NCBI GenBank assembly: GCA_963828255.1 | Contig: CAWHDZ010000024.1 | Location: forward strand, 1 to 26,096 | Length of the DNA: 26,096 nucleotides | Reading direction: 5' to 3' | From: an uncultured delta proteobacterium | GTDB lineage: Bacteria > Myxococcota > Myxococcia > Myxococcales > Anaeromyxobacteraceae | Shown here: piece by piece, positions 1 to 9,847 of the stretch | Layout of the letters: every line of letters starts with the position of its first letter | Position numbering within the stretch: position 1 is the first letter of the stretch | Translations under genes and position numbers: made by a program | The notes under the pieces: model-generated | What the model saw: only the letters and a program-made list of their open reading frames with translations | Told to the model about the DNA's origin: nothing | Database searches by the model: none

Positions 1-11
1 GAGCGCCAGCC

Positions 12-275
12 GTGAGCCGGCGCCAGCAAGCCCGGCTCGCGCTCACGCTGCGCGACGTGGACCGGGCGCTCGGCAAGCGCAACGGGACCGCGGCCCAGCT
101 CGTGACCGCCGGCCACCTCCACACCGTCCCGTTCTTCGACGAGGTGCGCGTCCCCCTGGAGGAGGTCGAGCGGCTCGTCGCATCCGGCATCACCCCCGAG
201 GGCCGGCGTCCGCGGGCGAGGCCGACTCGCAAGACCCGGAACGACACCGCCCCCATCGGCCTGGAGAACCTATGA
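12..275 (+). CDS. Excisionase/AlpA-like small HTH DNA-binding protein
   Basis: 87 aa; LTLRDVDRALG...AAQLVTAGHLHTV...VRVPLEEVERLV matches the Xis/HTH_17 pattern; basic tail; ATGA overlap with next ORF. Confidence 0.6.
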   Translation: MSRRQQARLALTLRDVDRALGKRNGTAAQLVTAGHLHTVPFFDEVRVPLEEVERLVASGITPEGRRPRARPTRKTRNDTAPIGLENL

Positions 276-498
276 CCACCAAGGAAACCGACCCGTCGAG
301 GTCGAGGCCTCGCGCAACCTGTCGCAAGCGATCGCGCTCTCCGCGATTGACTGCACCGCCGCCGAGAAGGGCGCGCGGGACGGGCTGACCGAGTGGGCCG
401 CGGGCGAGCTGCGCAACGCGGCCAGGTGCCTGCACGGCGCCGCGGAGTCGGCCGCCCAGCTCGCGGACATCCTCATCGGCAAGCGGGTGAAGCGGTGA
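272..498 (+). pseudogene. Small hypothetical protein with a 1-nt frameshift near 292-295
   Basis: ATG 272 (MTTKETDP) overlaps the previous stop; a helical protein-like frame (VEVEASRNLSQAIALSAID...ILIGKRVKR) runs 295-498 and its stop overlaps the next GTG; one extra C in the CCC run would join the two. Confidence 0.5.
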
Positions 499-737
499 CC
501 CCGGCCTTCGTCGGCGCGAAGCTCATGGCGCTCGTGCTGCTCGACCCGAGGTGTCGGGTCTCCTGGCCGTGGATCCCCGGCTGCGCTCCACGAGGCTCGA
601 TCCTCGTCGGCCCCACGGGCGAGCTGCTCATGGTTCGCGAGGACGGCGGGCTCGATCCCGTGGTCGAGGGCGGCCAGCCCCACGCCGGCATCGCAGGCGA
701 CCCGGCCGCGATCCCGACGATGGTGGTGCGGCGATGA
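495..737 (+). CDS. Hypothetical protein (80 aa)
   Basis: GTGA overlap with upstream stop; GC3-rich codons; C-terminal part of track ORF 393..737. Confidence 0.55.
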   Translation: MTPAFVGAKLMALVLLDPRCRVSWPWIPGCAPRGSILVGPTGELLMVREDGGLDPVVEGGQPHAGIAGDPAAIPTMVVRR

Positions 738-1039
738 ACGCCTGCGGAGTCGGATAGGCCATGGGGAAGATCCGCTCGCCCGGCCTAATTTCGGACCCCC
801 GGCATGGGGGCGCTCGTGCCGGGGTCTCCGACGCTGCACGGGAAGGTTTCGGCCCAGGTCTGGGGCTCCGTATTCTGGGACGCTGCTACGGGCGGATTGG
901 AGGCCCGCACCGGGACGGCCGCGGCGCTTACCGCATCCGGCGAATCCCCGGGAGCGGTCACCGGGTCGCGGAGCGTGAACGGTGGGCGGCCGGGGGCTCA
1001 CCGCCGCGAGCAGCTCCGGCGCCTCCGGCCGGCTCTCGG

Positions 1040-1500
1040 GCTGGCTCGGGCCAGGCGGTCGAGCTGGTGGCCGTCGGTGCCGCTGGGCGGCGCCTGGCTC
1101 TCGGGCCGGCGCTGGGCTCGGCAGACGCCCTAGCCGCCTCTGGCTTCCTCGACTCGGCCATCGGCTCGCGCCAGGGATACGGCGCCGCGCCACTCTCCGC
1201 CGTGGTCACGTTGGGTGAGGCTACCGGCCAGGCCGCGGTCGCAGGCGAGGACCGAACCGGCGAGGCGACCGAGCTGGCCGCCCTCTGCACGCTCGGCCAG
1301 GCGCAAGGGGACGCGACGCCCCCGCCGCGGGCTCGTGGAGTCCATCTGCCTGGACGGCCGCGGTGACTCCCCCGACGGCCCGGTCCGGGCAGGCCGCCCC
1401 GCTCAGCGCGACCTGCACGCTCGGGGACGCCACCGGGGACCGCGACGTCTAGGCGGATGCCGTTGCGCTGGTGATGCTGCTGCTACTCGGTGACGGCTGA
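1040..1500 (+). pseudogene. Disrupted repeat protein with G-x-A-x-x-L-x-A-x-x-x-L-G-x-A-x-G units
   Basis: Repeats GAAPLSAVVTLGEATG and GEATELAALCTLGQAQG lie in one frame, GQAAPLSATCTLGDATG in another; in-frame TAG at 1450-1452 before DAVALVMLLLLGDG*; start not identifiable. Confidence 0.4.
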
Positions 1501-1720
1501 ACGGAGGGCGGGATGGGCGAGACACGGGTGGTGGAGTGGGCGGCCGGCTGGACTCCGGGGGCAATTCCTGACAGCCGTCGAGGCGGCCGGCGGGCTCGCC
1601 CGCGGAGCAGTAACGGCCATCGAGTACCAGCATGACTCCGACTGCCCGAAGCTCGGCGGCAAGGCGTGCCGGTGCGATCCGAACGTGGTGGCGACGATCC
1701 GGCCGCCGGTGGCGTCATGA
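1490..1720 (+). CDS. Small phage-type protein with HDxxCP-x6-CxCxP putative metal-binding motif
   Basis: 76 aa, QHDSDCPKLGGKACRCDP; stop overlaps the primase ATG (ATGA). Confidence 0.6.
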   Translation: MTAERRAGWARHGWWSGRPAGLRGQFLTAVEAAGGLARGAVTAIEYQHDSDCPKLGGKACRCDPNVVATIRPPVAS

Positions 1721-3999
1721 ACGCCGAGCCGGTTCGCGTCTCCTGGCAACGGACGCCCGACGGCACGCCGCTCGGCAAGGCCCACAGCATCGACGCGGCC
1801 GGGCAGCTCCACAGCGCCATGACGACCCGATGGGTCAAAGGCTGCATCGCCGTCGAGACCGAGGTGCGGACGCTCCACGAGCTGCTTGACCAGGCCGTCG
1901 ATCTCGGCGGGTGCGCGCACCGATTCTCCGGCACGTTCGACCCGGGCGCGAAGGTGAACGGGAAGGTGCTCCGCTCCGGCGGGGAAGCACCGGGCGCAAC
2001 GGCCGACTTCCTCGATCACCGCGAAGGTCCGGGCGTCCTCTGCATCGACATCGACAAGAAGTACCAGCGCGACCCGTGGCTGACGCACGAGCAAGTCCGC
2101 GCCGGCCTGGTGGCGGTCGCGCCGTGGCTGGAAGGCGTCGGCCTTCTCGTCATGGACTCTTCCGGCTCGTGCATCGCCCTCGACGGCCAGGAGGTGCGCG
2201 GGCCGGGGGGCGTCCACGCCTATGCGCTCGTGGACTCCGCGCCGATGATCAAGGCGCTCCTCGAGGACGGCCACCGCCGGTCCTACCTCGCCGGCCTCGG
2301 GAAGGTCATCGTGAGCGCGGGGGCCGGCTTCCTCGAACGCTCCACGTTCGACCTGGCGCTCCGGCCTCCGACGCAACCCGACTTCGTGGTGCCGCACCTC
2401 GGGTCGCCCCGGCTCTCGCGGTCGCGCGCTCCGAGCATCTTCCCGGGCGGTCGCATCCCGGCGACGGTGGAGCTGCTCTCGTCGGCCGAGGTGGCGCGCT
2501 ACAAGCGGATGGCCGAGGCCGAGAAGTTGCGCCTCGACCCGGAGCGTAAGGCGAAGGTGGAGGAGTGCGCGCTTGCCCGCGGCATGGTCGCGCACGAGCA
2601 GCTCGGCGGCCACCTGGCCGATCACGTCGCGGCCGCGCGCCAGGCGTTCGGCACGCAGACCCTACCGCTCGACTTCGCGATCCCGCTCGGCAACGGGAAG
2701 CACCTCACCGTCGCCGAGATGCTCGCCGACCCGGCCCGGGTTCCGAAGGGGTGGAGCCTGCCCGATCCGCTCGATCCCGCCTACGGGCCGCACCGGGCGA
2801 AGTTCGACGCCGACGCGGGCGTGATCATCTCGCTCGCCCACGGCGCCCGCCGCACCTACCAGCTCGGCGCCCGCCCCGGGCCGACGCCGGATGGATCCGA
2901 ACCCGAGACCGACGTTGGGGAGGCCCCCGTGATCGACCTGTCCGGCGCCGACGGGGAGAAAACCCGCGCGACACCGAAGCCCGGGGCGGCCGAGATCGTT
3001 CTGTCGGTCTCCGAAATCTTCGCCCCCCTCCCGCCGGTGTCCTGGGTGTGCCAGGCGCTCGACATGGCTCCCGGCGCCCCGGTCCTCGTCGCCGGCTACG
3101 GCTACTCCGGCAAGACCGTCACCGTGCAGGACTTCGCCCTCGCCACCGCCTCGGGCTCCCTCGCGTGGGGCCGCTTCCCCGTCCGCGAGGGGCGCGTCCT
3201 CCACCTCGACTATGAACAGGGGTCCTACCTCACCCGCCTCCGGTACCAGCGGCTCGCCGACGCCCGCGGCCTCGACCCGCGCAGTATCGAGGGGCGCCTC
3301 GTGGTCCGCCCCTTCCCGCCCTGGTACCTCGACGCCGAGACGGACGACTTCCTCGCCGGCCTGGTGGACGGGTTCGACCTCGTGATCGTGGACTCCTTCC
3401 GGGCGGCCTGCCCCGGCACGGAGGAGAACAGCTCCGATGCCCGCGTCCCCCTCGATCGCCTGACCCGCCTTTCCGAGCGGACCGGCGCGCTCTCCATCGT
3501 CCTCCACCATGCCCGGAAGCCCTCCCAGGATCCCCGCAAGCAGGGCGGGGGGGCTCGGATGGCGATCCGGGGCTCCGGCGCCCTCTACGACGCCTGCGGC
3601 TCCGTCCTCGTGTTCGCTTCCGAGAAGGGCGAGCCCGTCACCGTCGAGCATGAGAAGGCCCGGATCACCGGGAAGACGCACGACCCGTTCCAGCTCTGGA
3701 TCGAGGACGTCGCGACCGACGCCGGCCCCGAGGCCGGGCTCCGGGTGTCCGTCCTCGACTCCGGCTCGACCTCCGCCGTGGAGGGGCCGGCCGACCGGCT
3801 CGCGGACGCGAAGGCCCGGATCCTCGATTTCGTGCGCGCCGAGGGCGGCACCACCGGCGGGCTCAACGTAATCCACCAGCGCCTAGGGGGGAGGAAGGAA
3901 ACCGTCTCCGCGGCCCTCGACGAGCTGGTGCGGGCGAAGCTCCTCCGGGAGGGCGGGACGTACCACCGCCGGACCCTTTCCATGACGGGAACCGATTGA
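1717..3999 (+). CDS. Primase-helicase replication protein (AEP-like N-terminus, AAA_25/RecA-like helicase, C-terminal wHTH)
   Basis: AEP-like motifs CIDID, SSGS...GGVHAY, TFD; Walker A AGYGYSGKT; VLHLDYEQG; Walker B LVIVDSF; IVLHHARK; RGSGAL. Start set at ATG 1717 (ATGA overlap) rather than 1666. Confidence 0.85.
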   Translation: MNAEPVRVSWQRTPDGTPLGKAHSIDAAGQLHSAMTTRWVKGCIAVETEVRTLHELLDQAVDLGGCAHRFSGTFDPGAKVNGKVLRSGGEAPGATADFLDHREGPGVLCIDIDKKYQRDPWLTHEQVRAGLVAVAPWLEGVGLLVMDSSGSCIALDGQEVRGPGGVHAYALVDSAPMIKALLEDGHRRSYLAGLGKVIVSAGAGFLERSTFDLALRPPTQPDFVVPHLGSPRLSRSRAPSIFPGGRIPATVELLSSAEVARYKRMAEAEKLRLDPERKAKVEECALARGMVAHEQLGGHLADHVAAARQAFGTQTLPLDFAIPLGNGKHLTVAEMLADPARVPKGWSLPDPLDPAYGPHRAKFDADAGVIISLAHGARRTYQLGARPGPTPDGSEPETDVGEAPVIDLSGADGEKTRATPKPGAAEIVLSVSEIFAPLPPVSWVCQALDMAPGAPVLVAGYGYSGKTVTVQDFALATASGSLAWGRFPVREGRVLHLDYEQGSYLTRLRYQRLADARGLDPRSIEGRLVVRPFPPWYLDAETDDFLAGLVDGFDLVIVDSFRAACPGTEENSSDARVPLDRLTRLSERTGALSIVLHHARKPSQDPRKQGGGARMAIRGSGALYDACGSVLVFASEKGEPVTVEHEKARITGKTHDPFQLWIEDVATDAGPEAGLRVSVLDSGSTSAVEGPADRLADAKARILDFVRAEGGTTGGLNVIHQRLGGRKETVSAALDELVRAKLLREGGTYHRRTLSMTGTD

Positions 4000-4151
4000 G
4001 CCTCTCCACCCCCCACCCCCGAGGCACGGGATCGGTTCCCGGGATCGGTTCCCGCCTAAAGGCGGGGAACCGATGCGACCGATACCGGGGCCAGCGATCC
4101 CTATCGGTTCCCGGAACCGATCGGGAACCGATGGGAACCGATGGAACCGAT
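3987..4151. repeat. Iteron cluster, putative replication origin: 9 copies of (G)GGAACCGAT in both orientations
   Basis: Forward copies at 3987, 4065, 4113, 4123, 4133, 4143; reverse copies (ATCGGTTCCC) at 4031, 4044, 4103; immediately downstream of the primase-helicase. Confidence 0.8.
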
Positions 4152-4157
4152 CACGCC

Positions 4158-4334
4158 ATGACCACCGCTCCCGCCGCTCCCGCCCGCCAACGCGCCCCCG
4201 CCTCCGACCTCCTGGCCCGGTTCCGCGAGCGGGTGCGCCGCCTGCGCCGCGACGCCGCTCCCGAACCGACGGCTCCCCCCGAGCCGGCCTCGCCCGACGA
4301 AGAGGACCGAGACCAACCGTGGTGGACCAAGTGA
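4158..4334 (+). CDS. Hypothetical protein (58 aa)
   Basis: ATG right after the iterons; MTTAPAAP...SDLLARFRERVRRLRR...QPWWTK. Confidence 0.55.
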   Translation: MTTAPAAPARQRAPASDLLARFRERVRRLRRDAAPEPTAPPEPASPDEEDRDQPWWTK

Positions 4335-4354
4335 CCCGCCCCGAGGAGCCGACC

Positions 4355-4564
4355 ATGACCGCCCGTACCTGTCCCCGCTGCGGCGCCGAGATGCCCGCCG
4401 TGCGCGACCTCGCGTTCACCGCCCTGCACGCGCGCCGCGCCCTCGACTCCAGCCGGCTCGCGCTCCCTGGCGGCGACGTGGCGCAGGCCGTCCGCGCCCT
4501 CGCCGCGGGGCTGGCCTGCATCGCCAGTCTGTGCCCGCCCGCCATCCCGAAGGAGACCCCGTGA
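4355..4564 (+). CDS. Small Cys4 putative zinc-binding protein, paralog A (69 aa)
   Basis: GAGGAG RBS at 4343; CPRC...CIASLC; homologous to next ORF. Confidence 0.7.
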   Translation: MTARTCPRCGAEMPAVRDLAFTALHARRALDSSRLALPGGDVAQAVRALAAGLACIASLCPPAIPKETP

Positions 4565-4770
4565 CCACCCCACGCCGTTGCGCCCGTTGCGGCGCCGACG
4601 TCCTCCCCATCCTCGACCTGGCCATGGTCGCCAAGCGGGCCGACAAGGCGCTCCGGTCCATGCGCCTGGCCGTTCCCGATGACGCGACCAAGGGACTGCG
4701 CACGCTCGCCAGCGCCCTCGCCTGCTACTCCCAGACCTGCACGCCACACGACCGGAGGGACGCGGCATGA
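4561..4770 (+). CDS. Small Cys4 putative zinc-binding protein, paralog B (69 aa)
   Basis: AAGGAG RBS and GTGA overlap; CARC...CYSQTC; about 26 identities to paralog A by manual alignment. Confidence 0.7.
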   Translation: MTTPRRCARCGADVLPILDLAMVAKRADKALRSMRLAVPDDATKGLRTLASALACYSQTCTPHDRRDAA

Positions 4771-5081
4771 CGCCCCCCGTGTGCAAGCTCGCCCGCGACC
4801 TGGCCGTCGGTGACTACCTCATCACCGCCATCGGCACGGCGCCCGTGACCGCCATCGTGCCCGACCGTGGCGGCCTGGCCGTCCACCTCGACATCTTCCA
4901 CGAGCGGTCTACCCGCCCGGCCTCCGAGACCCGCGTGCTCTGGCTCTACCCAGGCCAACGGATTGCCGTCCGCTCCCGCAACGGAGCCCCGCCCTTGAAC
5001 GCGGCGCGCGCCCGCGGCCGTGACCAGCCCCCCGCCTTCCTGCGTCGCCGCACGGGGCAGGAACCCGAGGTCACGCCATGA
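4767..5081 (+). CDS. Hypothetical protein, possible small beta-barrel (ARDLAVGD motif)
   Basis: GGAGG RBS, ATGA overlaps at both ends, alternating beta-strand pattern. Confidence 0.6.
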   Translation: MTPPVCKLARDLAVGDYLITAIGTAPVTAIVPDRGGLAVHLDIFHERSTRPASETRVLWLYPGQRIAVRSRNGAPPLNAARARGRDQPPAFLRRRTGQEPEVTP

Positions 5082-5377
5082 ACCGCCCCGCTCGACGCGA
5101 GGTGGGACGCGCCCTCGCCTTCACCATCGCCGGCCGCCTCGCCGATGCACGCGACTCCCTCCGACGCTTGCGTGCGTTCGATGACCGGCAACGGTGGATC
5201 GCCCGACGCGACGATGACGCGTCGCAACTGCCGCTGCCGATCGAGGGAGGGGGGGCACTAGGCTTGGGTCCCTCCTCGGGGGGGACCAATGCGGGTCCTG
5301 ACGAGCCCGATAGAGGGCGAGGCAAGGAATTCAATACGTTGCGGTCGGCCGGTCACGGGAGGCGAAATGCTGAGTGA
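5078..5377 (+). CDS. Hypothetical protein; 3' part reads through the cos-like site
   Basis: ATGA overlap and GAGG RBS; first ~55 aa look protein-like, the rest is low complexity. Confidence 0.45.
   Translation: MNRPARREVGRALAFTIAGRLADARDSLRRLRAFDDRQRWIARRDDDASQLPLPIEGGGALGLGPSSGGTNAGPDEPDRGRGKEFNTLRSAGHGRRNAE
5266..5310 (+). other. Putative lambda-type cos (cosQ/cosN-like) packaging site
   Basis: GGGTCCCTCCTCGGGGGGGACCAATGCGGGTCCTGACGAGCCCG resembles lambda GGGTCCTTTCC...TTACGGGGCGGCGACCTCGCGG; lies about 60 bp upstream of a Nu1-like gene. Confidence 0.5.
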
Positions 5378-5834
5378 GAGGCAGTTCGCCAAGCTGGTGG
5401 GGTCGTCCCTCTCGACCGTGCAGGAGCGGCGGAAGGCCAAGCGGCTCCCGAAGTCCGCGAAGAAGGACGCCAAGGGCCGGTGGCGGATCGACCCCGTGAA
5501 GGGCCTGGTCGAGTGGGAGGCGCTCGCGCCGCTCCGGGTAGGCGCCCGAGGTGGCGACGTTCCGGCGCTCACGGCCTGGCGGGAGGCGCGCTCCCGGCGG
5601 GAGGCGGCGCTCGCCGGCCTGGCGGAAGACGAGTTGCGCAAGAGCCGGAGCGAGCTGGTGAACGCGGCGGAGATGCAGGACGTGATGGTCGAAGCGTTCA
5701 CGCGCGCCAAGTCGAAGCTGCTCGGGATCCCGACGCGGATCCGGCACCAATGTCCGCACCTCTCCCTCGCCGACCTGGCGGTACTCGACGGGCTGATCCG
5801 CGAGGCGCTCGAAGACCTGGCGGAAGGCCGATGA
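5367..5834 (+). CDS. Terminase small subunit, lambda Nu1-like
   Basis: GGGAGG RBS; N-terminal wHTH (SERQFAKLVGSSLSTVQ); EARSRREAALAGLAEDELRKSRSELV, LLGIPTRI and IREALEDL are typical Nu1-family segments. Confidence 0.8.
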   Translation: MLSERQFAKLVGSSLSTVQERRKAKRLPKSAKKDAKGRWRIDPVKGLVEWEALAPLRVGARGGDVPALTAWREARSRREAALAGLAEDELRKSRSELVNAAEMQDVMVEAFTRAKSKLLGIPTRIRHQCPHLSLADLAVLDGLIREALEDLAEGR

Positions 5835-6004
5835 CCGTGGCCCTCCGCCCCTGCATCTTCTGCGGCGCCTCCACCTGGCCGGGCCAGCGCGTGTGCCCCC
5901 GGTGCCGTGAGGCGAAGCGGCGCCAGCTCGCCAAGGTGTTCGCCAAGGCCGCGCGGGCGTGGAGGCCGCCGGCCCGGAAGCGGGCGAGGCGGGGCGAGCG
6001 GTGA
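5831..6004 (+). CDS. 57-aa zinc-ribbon protein with basic C-terminal helix
   Basis: ATGA overlap with terS; CIFC-x10-CPRC; tail LAKVFAKAARAWRPPARKR. Confidence 0.65.
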   Translation: MTVALRPCIFCGASTWPGQRVCPRCREAKRRQLAKVFAKAARAWRPPARKRARRGER

Positions 6005-6504
6005 GGCTCGTCGCCCTGTCCCCGCCGCCCGTCGGCTGGCGGCCGTCCGGCTGGCCTCCGGCGAGCCCGGAGCCCCGGTGCGGGTGCGGGGCGCGAGTCG
6101 TCGCCAGGTCGTCGAGGTTCACGAGCTGCGCGCGTGGGTGCGTCCACCTGGCCGTGCTCACCGGCGAGCTGGTGAAGGCGAAGGGCAACGGGCACGCGCC
6201 TGCTACTTCGCAGACCGCGAAGAGGCAAAACGCCAAGACCGCGAAGAAGGCCCCGAAGAAGGCGAAGCCTGCGCCGCCCGCGCCCACCCCCGAGCAAGAA
6301 CGCTTCCGGCGCCTACTCGCCCCGGTGCGGCTCATGGAATACGGGTTCGTGCAGGACCAGCGCCGCGGGCGCCCGGCGTCGGCCGGCTCGGTCGCGCTGG
6401 CCCTCGTGGCGCTGCATCGCTTCCGGGAGGCGTGCCCCGGCCACGGTGAGGAGATCGCCGCGGCGCTTCCCTGGCTCACGCGCAAGGCCGGCCGGGCGGC
6501 ATGA
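6001..6504 (+). CDS. Hypothetical protein (167 aa): Cys cluster, Lys/Ala/Pro linker, helical C-terminus
   Basis: GTGA and ATGA overlaps at both ends; CGCG...CARGC; KTAKKAPKKAKPAPP. Confidence 0.6.
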   Translation: MRLVALSPPPVGWRPSGWPPASPEPRCGCGARVVARSSRFTSCARGCVHLAVLTGELVKAKGNGHAPATSQTAKRQNAKTAKKAPKKAKPAPPAPTPEQERFRRLLAPVRLMEYGFVQDQRRGRPASAGSVALALVALHRFREACPGHGEEIAAALPWLTRKAGRAA

Positions 6505-6920
6505 CCGACGCCGAGGCGCTCCGGGCCTTCGTGGTGGTGGCGGCCGGGCTCGATCCCGACCTTGCCCGCTGGGCCGCGGCCGCGGTCTGGCGTGGCCTCG
6601 CTCCCTCCCGCCGGCGCCGGATGCGCAACGACCTCTTGCGCCAGGCGGCCCGGCTCCTCCCGCCGCTCTCCGCTTGGCAGAAAGCTCACGTCCTCGCCGA
6701 CCTGGCCCGGAAGCCGTGTTCGCCCCCGGGCGTGGGCAGCGCGTCCGCGCTCGTGAGCCTGGCGCTGGCCGTCTACCCGTCCTCCCGCCGTGACCGGAAG
6801 CTCGGGGCCGCGCAGGTCTTCCGCGTGCTCGTTTCTCACAAGTCGCCCCGCGAGATGGAAGCGGAAGCGGCTCCAGACTTCGGGCTGATGCTGGACAACC
6901 TCAAGAGGGCACACCGATGA
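6501..6920 (+). CDS. Hypothetical basic helical protein, possible DNA-binding regulator
   Basis: 139 aa, ATGA overlaps; RRRRMRNDLLRQAA...SAWQKA; directly precedes the capsid gene. Confidence 0.55.
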   Translation: MTDAEALRAFVVVAAGLDPDLARWAAAAVWRGLAPSRRRRMRNDLLRQAARLLPPLSAWQKAHVLADLARKPCSPPGVGSASALVSLALAVYPSSRRDRKLGAAQVFRVLVSHKSPREMEAEAAPDFGLMLDNLKRAHR

Positions 6921-8027
6921 CCAATCCCATCCGCAGGGCAATCGAAGCCGAGCGTTCCAGGGCATCCGTCCTGAACGCCTTCGGGCAGACTCAACAGGGC
7001 AGCCCCGGAGCGGCGCTCCAGGTGGTCCGCGACGAAATGTCCGAAGCTCTCGCCTACCGACTGGGCGGGGGCCTCCCCGAGACCGACGGCGCCATGCGCT
7101 TCGTGGGCATGTCCTTCGCCGATCAGGTCTCGGGGCTGCTCGCCCTCCGGGGCGTCTCGTGGAAGGGCCGCACGGAGATGGTCGAGCGCGGCATCACGAC
7201 CGGCGACGTCGGCGCGCTCCTCGAGGGCGCGGGCAACCGCGCGCTGCGCAAGGCGTACGAGTCCTACGCCGGCGGGCTCCAGGCCGTGACCGGGCGCGCT
7301 CCCTCGCGCGACTTCCGCGACGTGAAGCTGATCCAGATCGACGGGGACATCGCGCTCCAAGAGGTGCCGGAAGGCGCCCCGTTCTCCTACGGCTCGCTGC
7401 AAGCGTCGGCCGAGACCTACTCGATCTCGACGTTCGGCCGCATCTTCTCGATCTCCCACACCCTGCTTCTCGACGACGATCTCGGCGCGTTCGCGAACCT
7501 GGCCGACCGTCTCGGACAGGCGGCGGCGGAATTCGTCTCGGGGAAGCTCGCGGCGCTCTTGGAGGCCAACGGGGGCCTGTCCGACGGGATCGCGCTGTTC
7601 CACGCCAGTCACGCCAACCTGGCCGGCGCGGCGCAGCTCTCCGAGGGATCGCTCGGCGATCTGATGAAGCTCATGCGCGCGCAGCTCGGCATCGGGGGCG
7701 AGCGGATCTCGGTCGCTCCTCTTCGGCCTGGTGGTCCCTGGCGCGCTGGAGGTGACGGCAAGAAAGATCGTCACTCAGCTCGGCAACCCGGCGCCGCTCG
7801 CGGTGGTGGTCGAGCCGCGGCTCACGTCGGCGACGGCGTTCTACCTCACCGCGGCGCCCGACTCCGGGCTCGGTCTCTCCTGCACGTTCCCCGGCGGCGA
7901 CGAGGCTCCCACCATCGAGCTGGGCCGGCGGTCGGGCTACCGCGGTCTCCAGGGCAAGGTGCGACTCGACTTCGGGTGCGGCGTCGCCAATCACCGCGGC
8001 CTCGTGAAGAACCCCGGCCTGGCCTGA
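6917..8027 (+). pseudogene. Major capsid protein (Mu gpT-like family, HK97 fold) split by a +1 frameshift at about 7721
   Basis: First frame has TTGD, RDF, VPEG, TFGRIFSIS, DDDLGAF, DGIALFHASHANL, MRAQ. The second frame (7722-8027) continues LVVPGALE, VVVEPRL, KVRLDFG, RGLVKNPG. Joined length is about 369 aa. Confidence 0.8.
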
Positions 8028-8030
8028 GTT

Positions 8031-8177
8031 GTGGTGCCCGTGTGGCGGGCAAAGGCTCCCGGCCTGGTCTCCGGGATGGCTCTCCGCAAGGTGAGCCAGG
8101 CTCGGTGGGGCTCTTTCGGCGCCCACACCTAGCCGCTGACGCGAGCTGCAGGGCTCGCGCCCGCCCACGGGTGCCAC
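8031..8177 (+). ncRNA. Candidate structured RNA, five-way junction
   Basis: 19-bp closing stem 8031-8050/8159-8177 (2 G-U, 1 bulge) enclosing four hairpins, one with a GCAA tetraloop; manual pairing only. Confidence 0.5.
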
Positions 8178-8314
8178 GTTGTCTTCACCGGCGCACCCCG
8201 CGCGCCAGTTCCATCCCGCCTGGCCTGGCGGTAGTGGGGGAAGGCCCGGAGGCCTCACGCGCGCCCGCCCGCCCGTGGGGCCTTCGTCTTTCTAGCGAGT
8301 GCTAGGGCGACCGC

Positions 8315-8477
8315 TGCCAACTGGCACCACCAGGTCGAGGCCGGCGCCCGTTGGAACGTGCTTCCAACGCGGGCGCGGTGCCCGAAGGCAAAGCCGGCCA
8401 CCTTAACCGGAGTGAACGCGCCTTAACTGGAGTGAACGGTGCTCACCTCGACACCGACGGCGTGGTGCCAGAAGGCA
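8315..8477 (+). ncRNA. Candidate structured RNA domain 2
   Basis: Perfect CTGGCACCAC/GTGGTGCCAG (8321-8330/8462-8471) and nested GTCGAGG/CCTCGAC (8334-8340/8446-8452) stems enclosing hairpins and a direct repeat. Confidence 0.45.
8401..8438. repeat. Tandem 18-bp direct repeat CCTTAACYGGAGTGAACG x2 (20-bp period)
   Basis: 8401-8418 and 8421-8438, one mismatch. Confidence 0.9.
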
Positions 8478-8544
8478 ACGCCCGGTTGGCGTGAGGCCAA
8501 GTCGAGGGCGGGAGTAGGCCGGTGGTAGACGTTCGCCGCGTCCG

Positions 8545-8880
8545 GTGGTAGCCGTCGGAGTGCCTCCGGCGGCCTGGCAGGCGAAGCGCACCGACCCCGA
8601 GGGGCTGAGCCCCGGCACGCCCATTTCCTGCGCGACCCTGCACGCCATCATCCCGGCGCGGTGCTGCGTGCTTCGCCAGCTCGTGAGCGAGCGGCAACGG
8701 ACGATCCAGGAGAGCCGCGGGCAAGGGGGCGAGTTCCCGACCTGCACCGAGCGGTGCGACCAGGGAGTCGCGGTGCGTGGGGCGCTGGCGGAGGGCTTCG
8801 CGCCGAAGGGGTGGAAGGGCGAGGGGCCAGGAGGGCGGTTCCTGCCGGCGCGGACCCGGTGGCTTAAGCCGCGGCGGTGA
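8545..8880 (+). CDS. Cys-rich hypothetical protein (5 Cys)
   Basis: ISCATLHAIIPARCCVLRQ...FPTCTERCDQG; GC3-rich codons; start uncertain. Confidence 0.55.
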   Translation: MVAVGVPPAAWQAKRTDPEGLSPGTPISCATLHAIIPARCCVLRQLVSERQRTIQESRGQGGEFPTCTERCDQGVAVRGALAEGFAPKGWKGEGPGGRFLPARTRWLKPRR

Positions 8881-9019
8881 CGCCGGAGGCCTCGCGCTGG
8901 TGCTGACACCAAGGGCGCGGGTAGGGTAGGGTCCGGTCCTCCTAGCACCTGAAAGGTGCTGGGGCGAGCACCACCACTCACGGCCGGCGTTGACATTCAC
9001 CCGGAGCGGAAAAGGCCCA

Positions 9020-9040
9020 TACCCCACTTGTACCCCACTT
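9020..9040. repeat. Tandem TACCCCACTT x2, putative integrase arm-type sites near the element end
   Basis: 9020-9029 and 9031-9040; 11-bp period; about 120 bp before the first host gene. Confidence 0.6.
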
Positions 9041-9160
9041 CACGGGAGCCAAGGGGGGCAGGGGGGACACGAATCCCTAACGAAACGCTGCATTTCACAG
9101 GCAGAGAACCCCTAGATTCTGGCTCATAATGCTGCGGAACCCGCCAGGAGGCGTCATCGA

Positions 9161-9847
9161 ATGCGTCATCCCTTCAAGGTCCTCGTCGCCTCGTTCGCCC
9201 TCGCGGTCGCCGCGCCGGCCATGGCGCAGTACGTCTTCCAGGAGGAGTGGCAGAAGCAGAAGGAGAGGGAGGCGCTGGCGCGGATGCCGGCGCAGCCGGT
9301 TCTGCCGTACCCGACCTGGAACAACGTCCTGCGGGTGAACCTGGGCGTGAGCTTCTTCTACTCGGAGTACTACAACTGCTCCTTCTGGGGCGGGTTCTAC
9401 CCCACCGTCAGCTGCGGCGGGGGCGCCTGGGTGAGCTACATCCCGTTCACGGTGGGTCCGCAGGTGGACATCAACCTGCAGGGGATGCACAACCTCAGCG
9501 TCGGGTTCAACGTCTTCCTGGGCAGCGCCACGGGAACCATCTTCACGTCGGGCTTGAGCGCCCAGAGCGTGACGCGGAGCGTGACCATCTGGGAGCCCAC
9601 CGTCGACTACGTCGCCAAGCTCGGCCTGCCGTCACGGGGCACGGTCGGCCGGTTCCGCGTGGGCGGCGGAATGTACATCGGCCCGAACGCGGAGCTGGGC
9701 GCAGCCTTCCGGATCGGCGGCGGCGCCTCGTTCTTCAACGCGAGCCGCCTCGGGCTCGGCCTCGACCTGGTCATCGAGGGCGGCGTCTACCGGGGCTACT
9801 GGATGGGCGGCCTGCAGCTGGTGGCTTCGCCCGAGTTCCGTTTCTAG
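9161..9847 (+). CDS. Exported protein, probable outer-membrane beta-barrel
   Basis: AGGAGG RBS; signal peptide ending AMA-Q; amphipathic Gly/aromatic strands; terminal Phe (SPEFRF). Confidence 0.7.
   Translation: MRHPFKVLVASFALAVAAPAMAQYVFQEEWQKQKEREALARMPAQPVLPYPTWNNVLRVNLGVSFFYSEYYNCSFWGGFYPTVSCGGGAWVSYIPFTVGPQVDINLQGMHNLSVGFNVFLGSATGTIFTSGLSAQSVTRSVTIWEPTVDYVAKLGLPSRGTVGRFRVGGGMYIGPNAELGAAFRIGGGASFFNASRLGLGLDLVIEGGVYRGYWMGGLQLVASPEFRF

Follow-up and report, generated by a model that had tools for sequence, protein, structure and literature searches.

We analyzed a window of 26,096 nucleotides from an uncultured bacterium of the family Anaeromyxobacteraceae (phylum Myxococcota), which is the entire contig CAWHDZ010000024.1 (C24) of a 4.3-Mb, 40-contig genome (assembly GCA_963828255.1), and we found that its first 9 kb belong to a mobile island that is cut at position 1. 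All island genes point rightward. From left to right, the island carries an Xis/AlpA-like helix-turn-helix (HTH) gene (12..275), a primase-helicase gene (1717..3999), an array of iterons (3988..4151), a cos-like site (5266..5307), a gene for a terminase small subunit (TerS; 5367..5834), an unnamed gene that marks the family described below (6501..6920) and a stand-alone major capsid gene (6917..8027), and it ends at the core of a right attachment site (attR; 9123..9130), with host metabolism genes from 9161 onward. A first-pass annotation, made from the sequence alone, had listed an Xis-like gene, a primase-helicase, iterons, a cos-like site, a Nu1-type TerS and a capsid gene, and all of these parts are present. 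It had also reported that no large terminase subunit (TerL), portal, protease or tail gene accompanies them, and we found none among the 19-21 open reading frames (ORFs) that we scanned with Pfam and PHROG. What we see in these 9 kb is thus the right-hand portion of an island inserted in the chromosome of a member of the Anaeromyxobacteraceae, and packaging motor, portal and tail are absent from it. It is one of a recurring family of myxobacterial islands that probably spread at the expense of lambda-like phages.

The capsid gene (6917..8027, + strand) encodes an HK97-fold, gpT-like major capsid protein that matches PF25209 (E = 2e-21) and only the capsid half of the protease-capsid PHROGs 4523 and 133; the protease domain is absent. 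Its nearest relatives in cultured phages are protease-capsid fusions at about 30% identity. A structural model of the protein (pLDDT 68) weakly resembles HK97-fold shells (E = 1e-4, TM about 0.35), with encapsulins among the top matches and phage capsids equally among them. In this assembly, the reading frame is broken near 7717-7722, a break that the first-pass annotation had missed when it called the gene. An intact 369-aa version (P0002), which differs from the window protein at two residues, is present on a 27,687-nt ENA contig, and the TerS and marker proteins of this near-identical record are identical to those of the window. Systematic miscalls at methylated GATC sites as the source of the P0002 differences were unsupported (among 56 GATC sites of the G010 DNA that was aligned, 0 appear as AATC or GATT in this genome), and therefore an error and a strain variant are both possible for the capsid frameshift.

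Capsid searches found matches in 8 of 92 genomes of the host family and 16 of 401 genomes of the phylum (this genome counted), plus one metagenome contig, which came from a scan with an alignment of protease-less ("solo") capsids; with this alignment, there were no further loci in GTDB contigs. Besides the window, we viewed 20 related loci within 11-40 kb of context (a 154-aa capsid fragment in genome G028 was set aside) and searched them with TerL and portal profiles that were built from the genes of one of them (G101) and would miss non-GpA terminases. TerL and portal were found in G101 and are both lacking from the other 19, and those TerL-less loci that were annotated gene by gene are compact islands in which an integrase gene is followed by replication genes, in some cases terS, and the capsid gene. 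G101, from the same host family, is a full prophage with integrase, TerS, GpA, head-tail adaptor, lambda portal, protease-capsid, cement and tail genes, and represents a candidate helper type. The closest parallel in gene order is a metagenome contig (L110) with an integrase, an AlpA-like gene, replication genes, TerS, two unknown genes shared with the window, a 360-aa solo capsid and a Cys-rich gene at the end, all in the window order. The first-pass annotation had read the stretch as a satellite resembling phage-inducible chromosomal islands (PICIs), while cautioning that it would be a simple deletion remnant if homologous loci proved to be full prophages; the lack of both genes from 19 of 20 homologous loci, and the gene order repeated in L110, support the former.

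To place the solo capsids among their relatives, we used a capsid tree of 67 rows, which leaves out representative-library fusions and has a midpoint root for drawing only. Protease-less capsids formed one clade of 16 proteins (SH-aLRT 100). The 15 of them that were aligned have lengths of 344-396 aa and share 50-72% identity with P0002. This clade is sister to the G088 group and lies on the side of the tree with other TerL-less islands and small head-module elements, and it is old. Grouping the solo capsids with the G101 prophage capsid was rejected (approximately unbiased test, p = 4e-8), and so was grouping them with the solo capsid of G389 (p = 1.4e-4), which fits at least two separate losses of the protease; these p-values are optimistic because the groups were named after the first tree was seen.

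Most relatives have the maturation protease fused to the capsid, and some add cement, tape-measure or fiber-like genes. The accessory slot after the capsid gene holds tail-fiber-like genes in G423, G268 and G389 (among the loci L161, L164, L165 and L023) and a tape-measure gene in G035, and the tail genes in this slot hint at modification of the tail or the host range. In G088 (contig C17, L134 and L135), an island at tRNA-Thr has a sister-clade solo capsid, a head-tail attachment gene, a ClpP-like gene and a fiber-like gene, with several reading frames broken in that assembly. Five IMG/VR contigs of 8-14 kb (L036, L043, L032, L030 and L033) are small elements with a lambda-type portal and a protease-capsid; there is a GpA TerL and a cement gene in L032, L036 and L043, and an integrase in all but L032. 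They look like capsid-forming PICIs (cf-PICIs) with a lambda-type head module, and they branch near the satellite capsids. Four further IMG/VR contigs (L031, L035, L047 and L055) are islands of other hosts with a protease-capsid fusion and neither TerL nor portal, and three of them have a long post-capsid gene that is tape-measure-like by eye. The island layout is therefore not confined to these myxobacterial genomes.

The marker gene (6501..6920, +) lies just before the capsid gene in islands of the family and encodes an all-helical protein. We found it in 18 of the 19 TerL-less loci (17 of these built the profile), in none of 47 IMG/VR loci with TerL and portal, and not in G101. It has no Pfam match, no fold match above Z 5.3 in PDB (where there are weak HTH-like rows), none in BFVD, and only unnamed neighbors in the Atlas. 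An identity as a Mor/C-like activator was not confirmed by Pfam, PDB, BFVD or Atlas comparison. The gene product is possibly a DNA-binding regulator, and it likely switches on or assists the late operon.

The TerS gene (5367..5834, +) encodes a 155-aa protein that matches phrog_57 over residues 1-154 (E = 3e-20), and three of its nine database relatives bear the JGI label Nu1; it has no match to solved structures at E under 0.6. End-to-end matches that include the C-terminal part connect the window protein with those of L110, G389, G360, G388 and the G101 prophage. In the TerS-like genes of G035, G061 and G087, the match is restricted to the N-terminal 60-87 positions, and these genes fit the layout of the redirector protein Rpp better; profile search found no TerS match in several other islands of the family. 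A full-length TerS is present in each of the four islands that combine a solo capsid with a detected TerS. Rpp has a TerS-like N-terminal DNA-binding domain and a different C-terminal dimerization part, and it binds and pirates the helper TerS; in lambda, the C-terminal part of TerS binds TerL (PMC6739421). The first-pass annotation had likened the window protein to Rpp. Since the protein is a full-length Nu1-type subunit and not the N-terminal domain alone, and matches phage TerS over its whole length, a true TerS is favored, and the island most likely supplies a replacement TerS.

The cos-like site (5266..5307, +) consists of a cosQ-like GGGTCCC box, 21 nt and a 12-nt cosN-like core (5294-5305). 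The window site aligns with a two-part motif that lies upstream of terS in eight of eight relatives, including the G101 prophage, and is made up of an RGGT(T/C/A)CT-like box, 19-21 nt, CG and a 12-nt core; the window copy is the most diverged of the family. In the lambda record, a GGGTCCT box, which we take to be cosQ, ends 23 nt before the genome end, and the equivalent distance is 21-23 nt in the window and its relatives; the cosQ-cosN-cosB arrangement is described in PMC6092414. When a matrix built from the eight relatives was run over 14-20 kb of each held-out locus, the top site lay 0.8-1.6 kb ahead of the capsid gene every time (12 of 12), with scores of 14.5-32.6 bits. The window site, scored under slightly different settings, reaches 6.9 bits, which is the best score on the + strand of the island (chance 0.065 per 260 nt), and sites on the minus strand reach 6.6. 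Position and homology support the window site, which on its own would be weak, and we regard it as a positional homologue with a diverged core that could reflect either a different helper specificity or decay.

The 760-aa primase-helicase (1717..3999, +) has a primase-like N-terminus and an AAA_25 helicase, with matches to PF13481 (AAA_25; E = 4.7e-28), phrog_16593 (primase; E = 2.2e-11) and phrog_6012 (E = 2.4e-14), and pieces about 95-98% identical over the primase are present in a pond metagenome, the run of which held only 0.06 of words and was not used for habitat. The iteron origin (3988..4151) comprises nine exact copies of the 9-bp GGAACCGAT in both orientations, as compared to 0.26 expected in the whole window, and at least nine copies were found in 0 of 100 shuffles; iteron-like repeats are at the equivalent position in L110, G061 and G087. 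The Xis/AlpA-like gene (12..275, +), for an excisionase or regulator, is 40-46% identical (E about 1e-11) to genes directly after the integrase in the islands of G061 and G094. It has no Pfam or PHROG match itself; its G094 homologue matches HTH_17, and L110 and G051 carry genes with AlpA matches. Because the window begins at the contig start, the integrase of the island cannot be read. Tyrosine integrases are present in sister islands, among them L110, G061 and G094, and integrases of the G061/G094 type in this genome are on contigs C1 and C11, apparently at tRNA-Arg. An outward-facing integrase at the end of contig C30 was considered as the missing gene and rejected, as it has its own Xis-like gene upstream.

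At the right end, the attR core CTCATAAT (9123..9130, +) equals the anticodon loop of tRNA-Met(CAT) and occurs in only three copies in the genome. tRNA-Met(CAT) directly precedes the equivalent of the host gene at 9161 in seven of nine relatives, and the islands of G061 and G094 are inserted in tRNA-Met, with duplications that start at CTCATAAT and span 10,403 and 10,960 bp. An integrase arm-type direct repeat, TACCCCAC twice with a period of 11, lies at 9020..9038 (+), and similar repeats are found at a similar distance from attR in G094 and G061. The first-pass annotation had proposed looking for the integrase and an att duplication in the left flank; that flank lies beyond the contig start, and the att core at 9123-9130 had escaped its notice. 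Contigs from the pond metagenome do not cover 8916-9131, and the junction is not readable there. The intact tRNA-Met of this genome is on contig C23 and is followed by a different island that runs to the contig end, and because of this synteny the window island is probably the second in a tandem array. The C23 island (73650-87089, L146; about 13 kb) has an integrase, an Xis-like gene, a possible TerS, a 1146-aa protein without a library match (likely for replication) and a large terminase (phrog_979, phrog_2); neither a capsid nor a portal match was found. It resembles an island that lacks a capsid and brings a terminase of its own, and it probably lies upstream of the window island.

Taken together, these data make it probable that the island is a phage satellite of the PICI type, which would rely for its packaging on a lambda-like helper with a GpA terminase and a protease-capsid fusion. 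So far as it can be read, it fits the definition of a PICI, in Myxococcota: three of the five core features in the SatelliteFinder model are present outright (primase-replicase with origin, capsid morphogenesis gene, small terminase subunit). Of the other two, the regulator is recognized by homology alone, and for the integrase with its att site the att core and arm-type repeats are present while the gene would lie beyond the contig start. The genes that the model forbids (portal, head-tail, tail, holin) are absent from 1-9130, with a left end of about 1.5-2 kb outside the contig. The window island has neither the portal, TerL, protease and head-tail connectors of its own that a cf-PICI requires nor the GpA TerL, lambda portal and tail operon of a complete lambda-like prophage. 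From PICI biology (PMC6092414, PMC10085698) we infer a helper, induction and small capsids, in the following steps. Helper infection would trigger excision by the integrase (beyond the contig start) and Xis, and the primase-helicase would replicate the circle from the iterons into concatemers. The island TerS would bind next to the island cos and recruit helper GpA to cut and pump island DNA, and the island capsid would assemble on the helper portal, with the helper protease or none. The resulting heads would be sized for about 11 kb, so that helper DNA would be wasted too, and the helper would supply connectors, tail and lysis. The capsid homologue of PmCI172 makes small heads, and Ccm of SaPIbov5 does likewise (PMC6092414).

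Several observations weigh against this reading. Behind the window attR, the 3' half of the tRNA, which the sister islands have next to the core, is absent, and its loss could impair excision of the window island. There is no integrase in the window, and no contig end can be joined to the C24 start (no end overlap of 15 nt or more). With the family matrix, just 0.6 bits come from the cosN-like core of this copy, and 2,162 positions in the genome do as well as the whole site. Two frames are broken in this assembly (near 290-300 and 7717-7722). As to the helper, for which the first-pass annotation had suggested a prophage with a GpA TerL, a prophage with GpA, lambda portal and protease-capsid that shares the cos-like motif does exist in the host family (G101). 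None is in this genome, whose 40 contigs gave no match for GpA TerL, lambda portal, cement or head-tail genes, and a GpA ATPase is present in only 2 of 92 family genomes. The window and G101 capsids share only 27% identity, so there is no guarantee that they would co-assemble if a helper of that type were present, and just 2 of the 16 members of the solo-capsid clade (window and L110) are readable in context. Against small heads in particular, deletion of the capsid-like gene of EcCICFT073 kept interference, and full-size heads are used (PMC6092414).

Thus, the satellite reading of the first-pass annotation holds for the island family, and the activity of this copy is doubtful; whether it can still be excised and packaged is uncertain, with the chances about evenly split. 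That the window copy belongs to the same family, with the same mechanism, and is trapped and decaying, unable to excise or be packaged, is compatible with a satellite at the family level, and we rate it a serious contender at slightly under an even chance. The incomplete tRNA after the attR core, the most diverged cos of the family (6.9 as compared to 14.5-32.6 bits), the frame breaks near 295 and 7720, and the probable second place in a tandem array behind the C23 tRNA-Met island all speak for decay. However, the capsid is intact in the near-identical record, where TerS and marker proteins do not differ from those of the window, the primase, TerS and marker genes of the window are intact and its iterons perfect, and the pond metagenome has close relatives of the primase. 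Alternatively, the capsid of a genuine satellite could form no small heads and instead be a dominant-negative decoy that disrupts assembly of the helper, or be dispensable, with the DNA traveling as concatemers in full-size helper heads. EcCICFT073 combines a capsid-like gene with full-size heads (PMC6092414), marine VEIMEs (mobile elements that integrate and are encapsidated in virions) are packaged as concatemers (PMC9618062), and some family members lack TerS by profile, so that parts are optional. We consider this unlikely, as the capsid is full-length, with a predicted HK97 fold, and conserved across islands, and the protease fusion in most relatives, with cement, tape-measure or fiber-like genes in some, points to the building of particles.

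Two further explanations have very little left in their favor. A one-off remnant, left by the deletion of TerL, portal, protease and tail from a lambda-like prophage, would share the cos-terS-capsid order of lambda-like head operons, and a full prophage of that type exists in the family (G101), but it is largely refuted by the 19 of 20 related loci without TerL and portal, by the marker gene, which occupies the TerL/portal slot and is absent from 47 of 47 phage loci, and by the deep clade that sets the solo capsids apart from full-phage capsids. A helper-independent, portal-less HK97-fold mini-virus or encapsulin-like element, as proposed in PMC13669383, would agree with the lack of portal and tail and with the encapsulins among the structural matches, but it is similarly improbable, because TerS and cos make sense only with a portal-docked GpA motor, the fold matches are weak with phage capsids equally among them, and the sequence of the protein identifies it as the capsid half of the protease-capsid fusions of phages.

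Returning to the satellite and its relatives, we lean, by a modest degree, towards cos-type satellites of lambda-like myxophages that form a phylum-wide, as yet undescribed family with its own marker gene and a conserved cosQ/cosN signal. This family would use three packaging designs: a full TerS alongside a protease-less capsid, an Rpp-like TerS alongside a protease-capsid fusion, or no TerS at all. Its capsids would have lost the protease at least twice, giving rise to a new capsid class of Ccm-like head-size switchers. We found the family at 18 genome loci, which span two or more myxobacterial families, and on one metagenome contig, and it is testable in culture because several loci are in single-contig genomes and marker-gene homologues are labeled with named species. 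The islands offer a natural series for how Gram-negative PICIs use capsid homologs to resize heads; in Pasteurella, the genes for head resizing are still unknown (2025 paper, PMC12409344). The conserved cos motif predicts the packaging signal of lambda-like myxophages and could serve DNA delivery in myxobacteria.

The remaining features of the island are small genes, all on the + strand. ORF 272..498 has a frame break near 290-300, with its ATG at 272 in frame 2 and the coding signal of about 300-498 in frame 1, and it is followed by a hypothetical gene (495..737) with a coding signal and, by eye, a similar ORF in the G088 island. A small Cys/His-containing gene before the primase (1490..1720) has a 49% homologue in a second island of this genome at tRNA-Val on contig C40 (about 212300-223400, L027), which shares this gene with the window and has an integrase, an AlpA-like gene and an AAA_25 helicase, with no TerS or capsid match. 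A paralogous zinc-ribbon pair (4355-4564 and 4561-4770; 46% mutual identity) has a weak, sub-cut-off zinc-ribbon Pfam match. Between TerS and the marker gene are a zinc-ribbon ORF (5831-6004) and a hypothetical gene (6001-6504) with a 35% homologue at the equivalent position in L110, and near the right end is a Cys-rich hypothetical gene (8545..8880) with homologues near the island ends of L110 (51%), G094 and G088. PADLOC gave no match among 15 small ORFs, and no sigma-70 promoter was found in 5000-9200. Two non-coding blocks within 8227-8503 recur in a region beside tRNA-Val on C11 (83% over 84 nt and 75% over 65 nt) and might represent a regulatory RNA or a cis element that islands have in common. 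The first host gene (9161-9847) belongs to a secreted-looking family without a Pfam match that has at least six paralogs in this genome.

Among known systems, the EPIPs of Mycolicibacterium (PMC12822802) resemble the window island in their size of about 11 kb, TerS and major capsid annotation, and they share a tape-measure-like gene with some of its relatives (G035). In contrast, they have a serine integrase, head-tail adaptor and stopper genes and an actinobacterial host, and the window island has no head-tail adaptor, stopper or tape-measure genes. The cf-PICI EcCIEDL933 (10.1101/2022.09.08.507074) likewise has its own major capsid protein and needs helper tails, but a cf-PICI also encodes portal, protease, connectors, HNH and TerL, and we found none of these in the window island. 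SaPIbov5 (PMC6092414, PMC12409344), a staphylococcal pathogenicity island, is cos-packaged and has a capsid homologue (Ccm) that redirects head size, a likeness of described roles; unlike the window island with its own TerS, cos SaPIs are packaged by helper machinery through the phage cos. With Gram-negative PICIs such as EcCICFT073 and PmCI172 (PMC6092414, PMC6739421, PMC10085698), the island shares a tRNA site and a size of about 10-11 kb, a unidirectional order of primase and origin after a probable regulator and, as read in sister islands, an integrase, the cosQ/cosN geometry, a TerS-like gene and a capsid homologue, and the lack of portal, TerL, tail and holin. The sister islands of G061 and G094 (10.4 and 11.0 kb) are near the PICI median of 9.5 kb (PMC10085698, section 17). 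The window island differs from these PICIs in its PF25209/gpT-like capsid derived from protease-capsid fusions, in a full-length Nu1-type TerS in place of Rpp, in having terS before the capsid gene, in the marker gene, and in its host. The vast majority of the PICIs in PMC10085698 are in Proteobacteria or Firmicutes, section 17 of that paper names no myxobacterium, and our literature searches listed no characterized PICI of Myxococcota, although supplementary tables of SatelliteFinder may already list some of the islands (unnamed Type A-C). The concept of a PICI with TerS and a capsid homolog is already known; what is new in this island is the host phylum, the capsid class and the marker gene.

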